The notes beneath the pieces are model-generated. The model was not told the origin of the DNA and made no database searches. It saw nothing but the letters and a program-made list of their open reading frames with translations. A DNA stretch of 64,000 bases. It comes from Escherichia phage HP3. The first letter of the stretch is position 1. Each line of letters opens with the position of its first letter. Positions 29,296 through 63,656 of this stretch are shown piece by piece. Location of the stretch: sequence record NC_041919.1. The stretch is one strand, 5' to 3'. The translations under genes were made by a program, and so were the position numbers.

Positions 29296-30036
29296 ATGAT
29301 TAGTGACTCTATGACAGTTGAAGAAATCCGTCTTCATTTGGGGCTTGCATTAAAAGAAAAAGATTTCGTAGTTGATAAAACTGGTGTTAAAACTATTGAA
29401 ATTATTGGCGCATCATTTGTAGCAGATGAACCGTTTATTTTTGGCGCTCTTAATGATGAATACATTCAGCGTGAACTTGAATGGTATAAATCTAAGAGTT
29501 TGTTTGTTAAAGATATTCCAGGTGAAACACCAAAGATTTGGCAGCAGGTAGCATCTTCTAAAGGCGAAATTAACTCGAATTATGGTTGGGCTATTTGGTC
29601 AGAAGATAACTATGCCCAGTATGATATGTGTTTAGCTGAACTTGGTCAAAATCCTGATTCTCGACGTGGTATCATGATTTATACTCGTCCATCTATGCAG
29701 TTTGACTACAATAAAGATGGTATGTCAGATTTCATGTGTACTAATACAGTACAGTACTTGATTCGTGATAAGAAAGTCAATGCGGTAGTAAGCATGCGCT
29801 CAAATGACGTGGTCTTCGGATTCCGTAATGATTATGCATGGCAAAAATACGTATTAGATAAATTAGTATCTGATTTGAATGCAGGCGATTCAACTCGTCA
29901 GTATAAAGCAGGTTCTATTATATGGAATGTTGGAAGTCTTCATGTATATTCTCGTCATTTTTATTTGGTTGATCATTGGTGGAATACTGGCGAAACTCAT
30001 ATTGTGAAAAAAGACTATAAAGGTGAGTGGAAATGA
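29296..30036 (+). CDS. 42: dCMP hydroxymethylase gp42
   Basis: 246 aa; thymidylate-synthase-like fold sequence matching remembered T4 gp42. Confidence 0.95.
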   Translation: MISDSMTVEEIRLHLGLALKEKDFVVDKTGVKTIEIIGASFVADEPFIFGALNDEYIQRELEWYKSKSLFVKDIPGETPKIWQQVASSKGEINSNYGWAIWSEDNYAQYDMCLAELGQNPDSRRGIMIYTRPSMQFDYNKDGMSDFMCTNTVQYLIRDKKVNAVVSMRSNDVVFGFRNDYAWQKYVLDKLVSDLNAGDSTRQYKAGSIIWNVGSLHVYSRHFYLVDHWWNTGETHIVKKDYKGEWK

Positions 30037-30875
30037 TTCAATTCGTAATTCCAAGTTATCAACGTGTCGGGGCAGTTTCTGCCCTTAATATGTTTCCGAC
30101 TGATTATGAACCCCATATTGTGGTGCGTGAACACGAAGAAAAAGCTTATTATGATGCTTATGGGTCTAGAGCTAAAATTGTAACTATTCCTGATGATGTT
30201 AATGGAATTGCCGGTACTCGTAAAGCAATTACTGATATGTATGCAGGTCAACGAATCTGGATGATTGATGATGATACTACTATTCGTATGAGTTCAATAC
30301 GAAAGAGAGACGATAAACGGCGTGTAGATAAAATTAATCAATTAACTCGTGAACAGTTCTATGAATTAATTCAATACGTTGAAGATGCCATGGATTGCGG
30401 GTATTATCACGGTCATGCTCGTCTACCAATTTTTAAAATTACTTCATCTTGGGGCAATTATCGTGAAAACTCATATGGATTCACGAATACATGGTATGAC
30501 CTCGGAAAACTTACGACAGAACAAATTGGGTATGGAAAAATTGATTTATGCGAAGATATGTATGCATTTCTCAATTTAATTAATCAAGGTTATCCGCATT
30601 TGGCCTTGTTCAAATATCTAGTTGTATCTGGAAAATCACACGCTCCCGGTGGGTGTAGTTCAATTCGTAGTAATTCTAAACATAATAGAGCGCTTGAGCA
30701 AATCAATAGAGAGTTTCCAGAGCAAGCTCGTTGGAAAACATCGAATATTGAAAAACGAAAATCGTTGGGTGAAGAAGACGAGCCATTAAAGGTTCTTCGC
30801 ATGTGTGTTTCGCGTAAAGAAAAATCAGAAGCATTTCATAAGTTTAATGCTATTCATCCAATAGCAGTTGATTAA
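30033..30875 (+). CDS. glycosyltransferase at the beta-gt locus (candidate beta-glucosyl-HMC-alpha-glucosyltransferase)
   Basis: 280 aa from ATG 30033 (ATGA overlap with gene 42); DxD-like WMIDDDTT motif; unrelated to remembered T4 beta-gt sequence (351 aa). Confidence 0.65.
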   Translation: MIQFVIPSYQRVGAVSALNMFPTDYEPHIVVREHEEKAYYDAYGSRAKIVTIPDDVNGIAGTRKAITDMYAGQRIWMIDDDTTIRMSSIRKRDDKRRVDKINQLTREQFYELIQYVEDAMDCGYYHGHARLPIFKITSSWGNYRENSYGFTNTWYDLGKLTTEQIGYGKIDLCEDMYAFLNLINQGYPHLALFKYLVVSGKSHAPGGCSSIRSNSKHNRALEQINREFPEQARWKTSNIEKRKSLGEEDEPLKVLRMCVSRKEKSEAFHKFNAIHPIAVD

Positions 30876-30899
30876 TGCCTAAATTTATTGTGTTATAAT
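30874..30899 (+). promoter_or_regulatory. possible middle promoter upstream of uvsX
   Basis: imperfect MotA box ATGCCTAAA (30875-30883), 10-nt spacer, TATAAT (30894-30899). Confidence 0.3.
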
Positions 30900-30952
30900 T
30901 ACTATATCTTTAACCAGTGAGGAAAATATAATGATGCCTATGGAAAAAATGA

Positions 30953-32134
30953 ATGTCTATTGCAGATTTAAAATCCCGTTTGATTAAAGCTTCCACTTCT
31001 AAAATGACTGCTGAACTGACTACATCTAAATTCTTTAATGAAAAGGATGTAATTCGTACAAAAATTCCAATGCTTAATATCGCTATTTCTGGTGCGATTG
31101 ATGGCGGTATGCAGTCTGGTTTAACTATTTTTGCAGGGCCTTCTAAACACTTTAAATCAAATATGTCTTTGACTATGGTTGCGGCATATTTGAACAAATA
31201 TCCTGACGCGGTTTGTCTATTCTATGATAGCGAATTTGGTATTACTCCAGCTTATTTGCGATCCATGGGAGTTGACCCGGAACGTGTAATTCATACGCCA
31301 ATTCAATCAGTTGAACAGCTGAAAATTGATATGGTGAATCAGCTTGAAGCTATTGAGCGTGGTGAAAAAGTTATTGTATTCATCGATTCAATTGGTAATA
31401 TGGCTTCTAAGAAAGAAACTGAAGATGCCTTGAATGAAAAATCTGTGGCAGATATGACTCGTGCTAAATCACTGAAGTCATTATTCCGTATCGTTACTCC
31501 TTATTTTAGCATTAAAAATATTCCATGCGTTGCGGTTAACCATACAATTGAAACAATTGAAATGTTTAGTAAAACCGTGATGACAGGTGGTACAGGCGTA
31601 ATGTATTCGGCTGATACCGTATTCATTATCGGTAAGCGTCAGATTAAAGATGGTTCTGATCTTCAGGGGTATCAATTTGTTCTAAATGTAGAAAAATCTC
31701 GTACCGTTAAAGAAAAAAGTAAATTCTTTATTGATGTTAAATTTGACGGTGGTATCGATCCTTATTCTGGATTGTTAGATATGGCTCTAGAATTAGGATT
31801 TGTAGTAAAACCTAAGAATGGTTGGTATGCTCGTGAATTTCTTGACGAAGAAACCGGCGAGATGATTCGCGAAGAAAAATCTTGGCGTGCAAAAGATACT
31901 AACTGCACTACATTCTGGGGTCCTTTATTTAAGCATCAACCATTCCGAGATGCTATTAAACGTGCTTATCAGTTAGGTGCTATTGATAGTAATGAAATTG
32001 TTGAAGCTGAAGTTGATGAATTGATTAACTCAAAGGTTGAAAAATTTAAATCTCCAGAAAGTAAAAGTAAATCAGCTGCTGATTTAGAAACTGACCTCGA
32101 ACAGTTAAGTGATATGGAAGAATTTAATGAATAA
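30953..32134 (+). CDS. uvsX: recombinase UvsX (RecA-like)
   Basis: 393 aa; Walker A GPSKHFKS; matches remembered T4 UvsX. Confidence 0.95.
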   Translation: MSIADLKSRLIKASTSKMTAELTTSKFFNEKDVIRTKIPMLNIAISGAIDGGMQSGLTIFAGPSKHFKSNMSLTMVAAYLNKYPDAVCLFYDSEFGITPAYLRSMGVDPERVIHTPIQSVEQLKIDMVNQLEAIERGEKVIVFIDSIGNMASKKETEDALNEKSVADMTRAKSLKSLFRIVTPYFSIKNIPCVAVNHTIETIEMFSKTVMTGGTGVMYSADTVFIIGKRQIKDGSDLQGYQFVLNVEKSRTVKEKSKFFIDVKFDGGIDPYSGLLDMALELGFVVKPKNGWYAREFLDEETGEMIREEKSWRAKDTNCTTFWGPLFKHQPFRDAIKRAYQLGAIDSNEIVEAEVDELINSKVEKFKSPESKSKSAADLETDLEQLSDMEEFNE

Positions 32135-56620: not shown

Positions 56621-56734
56621 ATGAAAAAGATTATTAAAGCTATATGGAATGTAGTTATAATACTAATAGTTTTGAGTATATTCCCAATCGTTTTAATGAT
56701 TGATGTATTAAACGTTTACTTTGGATTTATGTGA
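56621..56734 (+). CDS. hypothetical small membrane peptide (37 aa)
   Basis: ATG 56621 after GGAGGAAC; hydrophobic. Confidence 0.35.
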   Translation: MKKIIKAIWNVVIILIVLSIFPIVLMIDVLNVYFGFM

Positions 56735-62999: not shown

Positions 63000-63656
63000 T
63001 TATTTAGCCCTTCCTAATATTCTGGCCGCCTGAGCACATATTGATTCAAGGCGGTCATTACTTATATGATCATTTCTATACCAGTACATGGTTATCGTTC
63101 CAGCATAGATATTATCCAAATTAAAATATGGACAACTGTACATGTAGTTTATTTCGGGAGTAGGCTTTTTAGTTGGTAAAAAAGCAAATTTTGAGTCGGA
63201 ATAATAATGACGTCCATTTAAATGAACTGCATATTCATCCATAGTTTTATCAACAGGATATCCTCCAAGTGATTTTTCGCTTATTGTTGAAGGTAATTTT
63301 CCTTCGTATGCTATAATATCAACAAAATAGTTTAAGTTTTTAGGGCGGAAAGAATATACCGCACTAAAGTCTGCCTCAGATGATATATGAACTATCTGGA
63401 GTTGTTCCAGGGCGACAGATTCAAAGCGTGCATTTCTTTCCTTTTCAATAATTTCGCTGTATGTTTCATACTTTGATTGCTTATAGTACTCAAAGAAACT
63501 ATCTCCCCTATACCAAACAATCGCCATCATAAATAAAAGAATTACGACAGCTACCCGGGAAGCAAGAACATTCCCGGTAGCGTTATCTTTGAACAAGCGA
63601 TCTAGAACACCCAACAGAATATCAGAGGGCGAAAATGATATTCTAGGTGCTGCCAT
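63000..63656 (-). CDS. t: holin T
   Basis: 218 aa on - strand, single N-terminal transmembrane segment; size and sequence fit T4 holin; AAGGAGG RBS. Confidence 0.9.
   Translation of the reverse strand: MAAPRISFSPSDILLGVLDRLFKDNATGNVLASRVAVVILLFMMAIVWYRGDSFFEYYKQSKYETYSEIIEKERNARFESVALEQLQIVHISSEADFSAVYSFRPKNLNYFVDIIAYEGKLPSTISEKSLGGYPVDKTMDEYAVHLNGRHYYSDSKFAFLPTKKPTPEINYMYSCPYFNLDNIYAGTITMYWYRNDHISNDRLESICAQAARILGRAK

Follow-up and report, generated by a model that had tools for sequence, protein, structure and literature searches.

A conserved short open reading frame in the uvsX leader of T-even-type phages as a putative peptide-independent gate on recombinase translation

The gene uvsX encodes the central recombinase of T4-like phages, which drives recombination-dependent replication and repair, so that its dosage matters. 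The present analysis concerns the leader of this gene in a stretch of 64,000 nucleotides (nt) from Escherichia phage HP3 (sequence record NC_041919.1), a T2/T6-type Tequatrovirus; the whole of this stretch is referred to below as the window. An upstream open reading frame (uORF) of 18 codons begins shortly before uvsX and runs into it, with a start site that is conserved among related phages, and this leader element is newly described here, although elements of its kind are well known. It is annotated in none of the GenBank records inspected. A cis-regulatory role is the most economical reading of the comparative evidence, and we give about even chances to the view that the uORF acts as a translated leader mini-cistron which gates uvsX initiation independently of its peptide.

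It had originally been predicted that an 18-codon reading frame starting at 30931 overlaps the uvsX ATG at 30953 out of frame, and every coordinate of that prediction was verified. The uORF occupies 30931-30987 on the plus strand (ATG at 30931-30933, TAA at 30985-30987; product MMPMEKMNVYCRFKIPFD), lies in the +1 frame relative to uvsX and overlaps it by 35 nt, with 22 nt from one start codon to the other. The gene uvsX itself (30953-32134, plus strand) encodes a RecA-like recombinase of 393 amino acids that is 100% identical to T2 UvsX, and the T2 record annotates it as uvsX; a TGA stop in the uvsX frame (30950-30952, plus strand) stands directly before its ATG, so that 30953 is the only possible uvsX start. 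In front of the uORF, the Shine-Dalgarno (SD) sequence GAGG (30919-30922, plus strand) is followed by a spacer of 8 nt, AAAATATA, and by the ATG of the uORF (uATG, 30931-30933), and SD, spacer and uATG fall within a start-site block of 17 nt, GTGAGGAAAATATAATG (30917-30933, plus strand). The sole SD-like element for uvsX is a GGA at 30942-30944 with a spacer of 8 nt, which lies in an ATGGAA motif (30940-30945, plus strand) whose ATGG is invariant in the core leader group of the alignments. Predicted pairing with the anti-SD amounts to -6.5 kcal/mol for the uORF vs -3.3 kcal/mol for uvsX, and the claim that a strong ribosome-binding site on the uORF is paired with a weak one on uvsX thus holds in this genome. 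Across the surrounding region (30780-31100) identity is 100% with Escherichia phage HP3.1 and 98% with T2, and 573 phage records match.

The conservation of the start-site block was assessed in 80 uvsX loci from viral contigs together with annotated records of named phages; the block was located by a regular expression, and independent MAFFT alignments agree with its placement. In the form (G)TGAG.A.AA(T)AT(A/T)ATG it occurs at a fixed place 5' of uvsX in 15 distinct lineages belonging to at least five genera, whose UvsX proteins are 67-100% identical to that of the window. The block is present in Tequatrovirus T2, Dhakavirus JS98, Gaprivervirus RZ, Mosigvirus FL18 and Marfavirus Potts1, and also in the straboviruses Klebsiella phage K65_evo5 and Citrobacter phage Ursula. 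Its mean pairwise identity is 0.883 vs 0.434 in the adjoining 17 nt upstream, and the corresponding values for codon positions 1, 2 and 3 of uvsX are 0.813, 0.873 and 0.515. Invariant columns make up 12 of the 17 positions; in uvsX the invariant share is 5.9% at third codon positions (binomial p = 8e-12) and 63.5% at second ones. In the alignments no insertions or deletions (indels) fall within the block across the 15 lineages, while both flanks contain them. The TGAG of the SD is kept in all 15 lineages and the G of the ATG in 14 of 15; these are the columns that a start site needs, and the conservation therefore supports a start-site reading. Taken across genera, this pattern indicates that the block is under purifying selection.

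Judged from the single genome, the case for a uORF beyond chance is weak, because the short open reading frames (ORFs) found behind comparable sites are as numerous as the chance background would provide (about four per strand). The motif GAGG-N6-9-ATG occurs 32 times on the coding strand of the window and four times on the other; 28 of the 32 begin ORFs of at least 40 codons, and exactly four short ORFs follow the motif on the coding strand, the uORF among them. Across phages, the comparative case for a uORF start site is strong. A scan of viral contigs for the 17-mer yielded mostly unrelated gene starts and was reused as a control for start-site behaviour: in 55 of 67 distinct contexts other than uvsX, the identical 17-mer, in its GAGG and GAGA forms, begins an ORF of at least 60 codons. 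Within the window, too, nearly all near-matches to the block coincide with starts of genes on the coding strand (12 vs 2.4 expected). On these comparisons, the uORF start site is almost certainly initiation-competent.

What is held constant in this leader is the position of the uORF and not its content. The distance from the uATG to uvsX stays at 19-27 nt, mostly 22-24, while all three frames relative to uvsX occur among the lineages and the length of the uORF ranges from 6 to 32 codons, with products as diverse as MMPMEKMNVYCRFKIPFD, MMPMEKYNV, MEINGKY, METYGI, METYGK, MVTNGKY and MFVIFKG. Such a combination of fixed distance with freely varying frame, length and peptide is the signature of a position-dependent, sequence-independent uORF, in which the peptide itself is apparently irrelevant. 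A run of six A residues (30944-30949, plus strand) has five, six or seven among close relatives, and the gain or loss of one A flips the uORF frame between near-identical phages (the window vs L006, and L033 vs FL18, also designated L207); each such change also shifts the SD spacing of uvsX by 1 nt. Six Tequatrovirus genomes show no variable site at 30906-30933 and two substitutions in the uORF body, both missense (M2L and P3L), a sample too small for a test. That a functional micro-protein is made from the uORF, or else an arrest peptide or regulatory leader peptide, has in its favour an ORF with a good start site; sequence, length and frame are nonetheless unconserved, single-base indels and missense changes separate near-identical phages, and the alternative RNA structures or terminator needed for attenuation are lacking, so that the micro-protein is effectively refuted by the comparative data and this whole class of explanation retains next to no probability. 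Programmed frameshifting into uvsX was also rejected, since the TGA at 30950-30952 closes the frame, no X XXY YYZ heptamer occurs in the uORF frame, and the relative frame varies; the same in-frame TGA excludes an N-terminally extended UvsX in the window. A single lineage (L027) has its upstream ATG fused in frame to uvsX with no stop between (ATGTTTGTCATTTTTAAAGGAACAAAA-ATG; about 1474-1503), and could therefore produce a UvsX with a 9-residue N-terminal extension; its close relative L026 carries a TAA at the position where L027 reads through.

The weakness of the uvsX SD accompanies the uORF site in most leaders. In 22 of 25 distinct leaders with the site, the uvsX SD is only GGA (-3.3 kcal/mol), compared with a median of -5.6 in 34 leaders lacking it (nominal Mann-Whitney p = 9e-9, a value inflated by shared ancestry). 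The uvsX SD is AAGG in T4, whose leader has been replaced by the homing-endonuclease gene segA, and TAGGA in two lineages in which the uATG has become ATT (L030 and L032), yet three others (L026, L027 and L029) keep the uATG together with stronger uvsX SDs. In another lineage (L037), a mini-ORF of three codons, AUG-GAA-ACU-UAA, abuts the uvsX AUG and uses the ATG of the conserved ATGGAA as its start; its sequence suggests a homologue of this leader that has collapsed, and not an independent case.

The position of the uORF stop differs among lineages in a way that bears on the possible fate of terminating ribosomes. Distances were expressed as d = x_start - x_stop - 3, following Tian and Salis (PMC4538824). 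According to that work, reinitiation in E. coli is flat from d = 0 to +25 and peaks at -4; below d = -10 it falls by 0.0004 per nt from 0.0072, reaching zero near -28, and overlaps of at least 25 nt are advised in order to abolish it (PMC4538824). It has also been reported that post-termination ribosomes reinitiate in either direction (PMC5972666), and earlier in vivo work, as summarised there, gave a scanning radius of more than 40 nt both ways (Adhin and van Duin 1990, in PMC5972666). In 11 of 18 lineages, covering most genera, the uORF stop abuts the uvsX ATG (TGAATG, TAATG, TAA-TGA-ATG or TCTGA; d from -8 to +3); in three (L011, FL18 and L006) d is -13 or -19, where reduced reinitiation would be expected; and in the remaining four (the T2 type of the window, Gaprivervirus, L024 and L029) d is -35 or beyond, where it should be about zero. 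The window belongs to the last class, with its uORF stop at +33 in uvsX and d = -35, outside the reinitiation range. A 6-nt insertion, ATTGCA (Ile-Ala; 30959-30964, plus strand), found by alignment at uvsX codons 3-4 relative to UvsX proteins of the MSDLKS type, destroys in the T2 type and Gaprivervirus the TCTGA stop that is used in JS98 and Mosigvirus, and so moves the uORF stop from +6 to +33. At the protein level, T2-type Tequatrovirus and Gaprivervirus read MSIADLKS where others read MSDLKS, and MALADLKS is found in L019 and L023.

The uORF probably lies on the middle transcript of uvsX. A MotA-box-like element, TAATGCCTAA (30873-30882, plus strand), overlaps the stop codon of the preceding glucosyltransferase gene and is the predicted uvsX middle promoter together with an extended -10 element, TGtTATAAT (30891-30899, plus strand), at a spacing of 11 bp; GCT-containing boxes homologous to the former stand at the same place in other lineages, and TATAAT is kept in most of them. 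The published consensus for middle promoters is (a/t)(a/t)(a/t)TGCTTtA at 12 +/- 1 bp from a -10 element (PMC2988021), and the promoter at 30873-30899 agrees with this definition. We infer a transcription start near A30906, which fits the occurrence of within-genus single-nucleotide polymorphisms at 30903/30904, the onset of conservation at 30906 and the beginning of homology with phage Pu-Krd-SF6 at about 30907. In Pu-Krd-SF6 (L232, positions 60-197, compared with window 30860-30952) the leader from about 30907 onwards is common to both phages, whereas the sequence upstream is unrelated and has no TATAAT middle promoter. It appears, then, that the leader travels with uvsX and that the promoter can be swapped. 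The 5' end of the leader forms a block of its own, ATCTTTAACCA (30906-30916, plus strand), which is conserved in the alignments and reads ATC(T/C)TT(T)AAAC in relatives; it has no significant second copy within the 64-kb window, and a repeated mobile cassette was thereby ruled out. The RNA itself shows little sign of structure: the fold of the single sequence is unremarkable (z = -0.46), the consensus fold of 14 sequences reaches -0.24 kcal/mol with 0 compensatory pairs, an Rfam scan of the leader matched no family, and a terminator search of it found none. A split-SD hairpin, a gp43-type hairpin operator, a gp32-type pseudoknot and structured operators in general were ruled out on the absence of structure in folds and Rfam, and an attenuator on the lack of a terminator, of conserved structure and of a conserved peptide.

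Under the reading that we favour, the uORF would present on the middle transcript a start resembling real T-even gene starts, 22 nt 5' of the uvsX AUG. A ribosome initiating at either AUG would cover the other site, making the two starts mutually exclusive on any one mRNA at a given moment. In this T2-type genome the uORF has the stronger SD (GAGG vs GGA), and ribosomes translating it would cross the uvsX start and stop at +33 in uvsX, a distance too great for efficient reinitiation, so that the uORF would mainly compete with and occlude the uvsX start and place a ceiling on UvsX translation. In most related genera the uORF ends at the uvsX AUG or next to it, where reinitiation by terminating ribosomes could come in addition, and whether translation of the uORF helps or hinders uvsX would depend on where the uORF stops. 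The arrangement in the window is that of an occluding uORF, in which the starts lie 22 nt apart and the uORF crosses the uvsX AUG out of frame to end at +33; the features of a coupled mini-cistron, namely a competent upstream start on the same predicted transcript, are present at the sequence level only. With d = -35 beyond the measured range, occlusion or competition appears more likely than coupling in the window. The original prediction had proposed that the uORF could tune UvsX synthesis by coupling or occlusion; the conserved start site and the weak uvsX SD speak for such tuning, and of its two arms only occlusion or competition is favoured at this distance. Its description of the uORF ribosome-binding site as excellent applies to this lineage but not to most relatives.

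Several observations weigh against this reading, or at least against its simplest form. The uORF SD is GAGA or GAGT in most lineages (-2.2 to -3.6 kcal/mol) and does not exceed the uvsX SD, though TGAG is invariant, so that a simple model of a strong decoy or a strong feeder does not generalise. The association between the uORF site and a weak uvsX SD is confounded by phylogeny and reflects some three to four independent transitions. Beyond the clade, leaders of uvsX show no significant enrichment of uORFs (3 of 31 vs 1.26 expected, p about 0.1), and the leader element is therefore inherited within the clade and not a general property of uvsX; T4, moreover, does without the leader module. Reported reinitiation coefficients are small, at 0.007-0.022 of upstream translation (PMC4538824), which means that coupling would add little unless the uORF were translated far more than uvsX. 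Literature searches on a uvsX uORF, on ribosome profiling of T-even phages and on start-site maps of relatives returned nothing relevant. Finally, conservation of the block exceeds what a start site would require: the start site of gene 41 has an identity of 0.608 in 14 lineages vs 0.883 for the block (the start site of gene 40 was unsuitable as a control, as it could not be placed reliably across lineages), and in four lineages matched for the comparison the uORF site reaches 0.92, with 0.80, 0.66 and 0.56 for the starts of genes 45, 44 and 41, respectively. Almost no variation is seen in the spacer that separates SD and AUG, which goes beyond generic start-site needs, and L030 and L032 retain the block with ATT in place of the uATG. 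Spacer invariance, conservation above that of genuine gene starts and these ATG-less blocks suggest a sequence-specific reader.

This extra constraint brings in the alternative that the block is mainly an operator for an RNA-binding translational repressor, with RegA as the obvious candidate, in which the AUG would form part of the site and translation of the uORF would be incidental or secondary; the repressor would shut off uvsX either directly, the site being within the 5' reach of the 30S subunit, or by blocking the mini-ORF. All T4-related phages conserve RegA, whose sites in T4 have been described as unstructured and rich in A+U, comprising a 5' poly(A) tract and an AUG, as in dexA AAAAUUUAAUGUUU; RNA structures that promote initiation are mentioned in the same source (PMC3014915). 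The uORF site, AAAAUAUAAUGAUG, answers to this description and shares 11 of 14 positions with dexA, the candidate target stretch in the leader being 5'-GUGAGGAAAAUAUAAUGAUGCC-3'; the absence of conserved structure in the region, the near-invariant spacer, the persistence of the block without its ATG and its conservation, at least equal to that of the RegA-controlled starts of genes 45 and 44, point the same way. In these respects the site resembles the RegA operators of T4 and RB69 (genes 44, 45, rIIB, dexA and regA), but it differs from them in lying at the start of the mini-ORF and not at that of the regulated gene. The descriptors are also loose and non-discriminating, for the similarity score to the uORF site fails to separate known RegA targets from other T2 starts; literature searches found no link between RegA and uvsX, and an operator leaves unexplained both the constrained spacing between uATG and uvsX and the stops that abut the uvsX ATG. 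We therefore regard an operator as the main function of the block as rather unlikely, and the RegA link as a lead and not a finding. It is compatible with a mini-cistron and does not exclude it, and a combined scheme can be entertained, if with considerable doubt, in which the block is an operator for RegA or another factor acting on a mini-cistron that gates the weak uvsX start, and would time or limit UvsX across most Tevenvirinae; it would have been missed in sixty years of T4 genetics since segA replaced the leader there and supplied a new promoter and a conventional SD.

Two further alternatives were considered. Positive coupling in the window itself would have uORF ribosomes stop at 30985-30987, travel back some 33 nt and start again at the weak uvsX site, so that UvsX output rises. 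The pairing of a weak uvsX SD with a strong uORF SD in this lineage would suit such a scheme, as would the reported post-termination reach of more than 40 nt in both directions (Adhin and van Duin 1990, as summarised in PMC5972666), and the abutting stops of 11 of 18 relatives, with the mini-ORF of L037 reading UAAAUG together with uvsX; yet d = -35 lies past the extrapolated zero near -28 (PMC4538824), 30S subunits scanning backwards would collide with following ribosomes, all the more so behind a strong uORF start, and tolerance of the stop-moving 6-nt insertion in two genera suggests that precise placement of the stop is not essential. Coupling in the window is, on this balance, improbable. 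Conservation could instead operate at the level of DNA, for a perfect -10-like hexamer, TATAAT (30927-30932, plus strand), overlaps the uATG, spanning +22 to +27 on the transcript as predicted, and might serve as a second promoter, giving a uvsX mRNA with a short leader from near A30940, or as a promoter-proximal pause site dependent on sigma-70, the ATG then being incidental. The only variants of the hexamer, TATTAT, TATGAT and CATTAT, retain both A-11 and T-7, the critical residues; 8-9 nt downstream, at the expected start position, stands the conserved A of ATGGAA; and a MotA-box-like ATCTTTA or TCCTTTA is found upstream, MotA being tolerant of deviations from its consensus (PMC2988021). 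Nevertheless, the hexamer has neither a -35 element nor a TGn, the MotA-like box lacks TG and stands 14-15 bp away vs 12 +/- 1, so that the definition of a MotA-dependent middle promoter does not apply to it, and a consensus promoter scan of the plus strand reported none there; such an element would also leave unexplained the TGAG that stands invariant 5-8 nt before the hexamer and the conserved G behind it. A DNA-level element is accordingly very unlikely to account for the block, and a peptide-independent mini-cistron gating uvsX is the reading that we retain.

Comparison with known systems helps to place such a mini-cistron. Leader-peptide attenuators and arrest peptides, such as trpL, pheL, ermCL, tnaC and secM, form one well established class; the uvsX leader shares with trpL- and ermCL-type leaders a short ORF in the 5' leader, but has no conserved peptide, regulatory codons, alternative hairpins or terminator. 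T4 genes 38 and 25 use split Shine-Dalgarno start sites that are bridged by a hairpin, and the uvsX leader resembles them in having a good SD about 30 nt 5' of a gene start without a strong SD nearby, but no bridging hairpin is present in it. In termination-reinitiation coupling (ATGA, TAATG and TGAATG arrangements; Tian and Salis 2015, PMC4538824; the scanning model of Adhin and van Duin 1990), as in the uvsX leader, an upstream ORF lies on the same mRNA, the stop is near the downstream AUG (in 11 of 18 relatives here), the downstream SD is weak and no function of the peptide is needed; the upstream cistron of uvsX is, however, a mini-ORF of 6-18 codons and not a gene, the overlap in the window is 35 nt, and starts 22 nt apart compete sterically. 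Inhibitory overlapping uORFs, or decoy starts, in bacterial leaders, with which the synthetic 'two-cistron' expression design reported for Schoner and colleagues may be grouped, are likewise short, peptide-independent ORFs that alter ribosome access and whose position and start strength decide the outcome, but the uvsX block is unusually conserved in sequence, its spacer included; literature searches gave no described example of an inhibitory overlapping uORF in T-even phages or for a recombinase gene.

If the mini-ORF does set the output of UvsX, most T-even-type phages would have a layer of control that is absent from T4, and this layer would span T2, T6, RB69-like and JS98-like phages and many therapeutic Klebsiella and E. 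coli phages. The element is compact and highly conserved, and it has been overlooked by annotation pipelines. It also offers a natural system in which to separate uORF competition from reinitiation, as relatives differ mainly in the position of the stop, with d ranging from +3 to -80. Under the same premise, T4 would provide an example of a homing endonuclease insertion, that of segA, rewiring the expression of its target gene. SegA has been reported to cut inside uvsX (PMC2988022). In T4, segA is situated between beta-gt and uvsX, the uvsX promoter start (23752) lies inside segA, and uvsX begins 8 nt after the segA stop; by this comparison T4 has evidently lost the leader to segA. Since the T4 leader is a different one, classical work on PuvsX concerns another leader.

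The beta-gt/segA/uvsX junction of T4 (L002, NC_000866, minus strand, about 3372-3240, compared with window 30856-30925) is a mosaic. The T4 sequence tatctttaaccggtggaataaATG corresponds to the 5' half of the T2-type uvsX leader and now precedes a truncated small hydrophobic ORF (MLGPLLLIIGLGLFAFWDFFCYID*), while the T2-type beta-alpha-glucosyltransferase gene has left a remnant of its 3' end, catcgaatagcagttgattaa, immediately ahead of segA. A small hydrophobic ORF is found just 5' of the uvsX promoter in Dhakavirus JS98 (L003, about 655-786; MLGPLLLFIGLLLF...RGIK) and in Gaprivervirus RZ (L004, 676-804; MIGVLLISLWML...RGFNR); RZ alone has it annotated, T4 carries a truncated version, and the window lacks it.

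Locally in the window, gene 42 (29296-30036) is followed by the gene for the beta-glucosyl-HMC-alpha-glucosyltransferase (30027-30875) and then by uvsX and genes 40 and 41, in that order. As listed, the ORFs of gene 42 (dCMP hydroxymethylase) and of the glucosyltransferase overlap by 10 nt (30027-30036); the T2 annotation places the glucosyltransferase start 6 nt further in, which leaves an overlap of 4 nt that is typical of coupled genes. Gene 41, the replicative helicase gene (window 32481, with homologous positions in L009-L046), has GTG as its start codon in 13 of the 14 lineages examined, and the conserved GTAGAAAC comes directly after it. The other three short ORFs behind a GAGG-N6-9-ATG site on the coding strand are a basic ORF of 17 codons at 2170-2223 (MTKRQFRNRLYGLPSKR), just after an ORF that ends at 2152; an ORF of three codons at 63635-63646; and a hydrophobic ORF of 37 residues at 56621-56734, which is probably a real small membrane protein.

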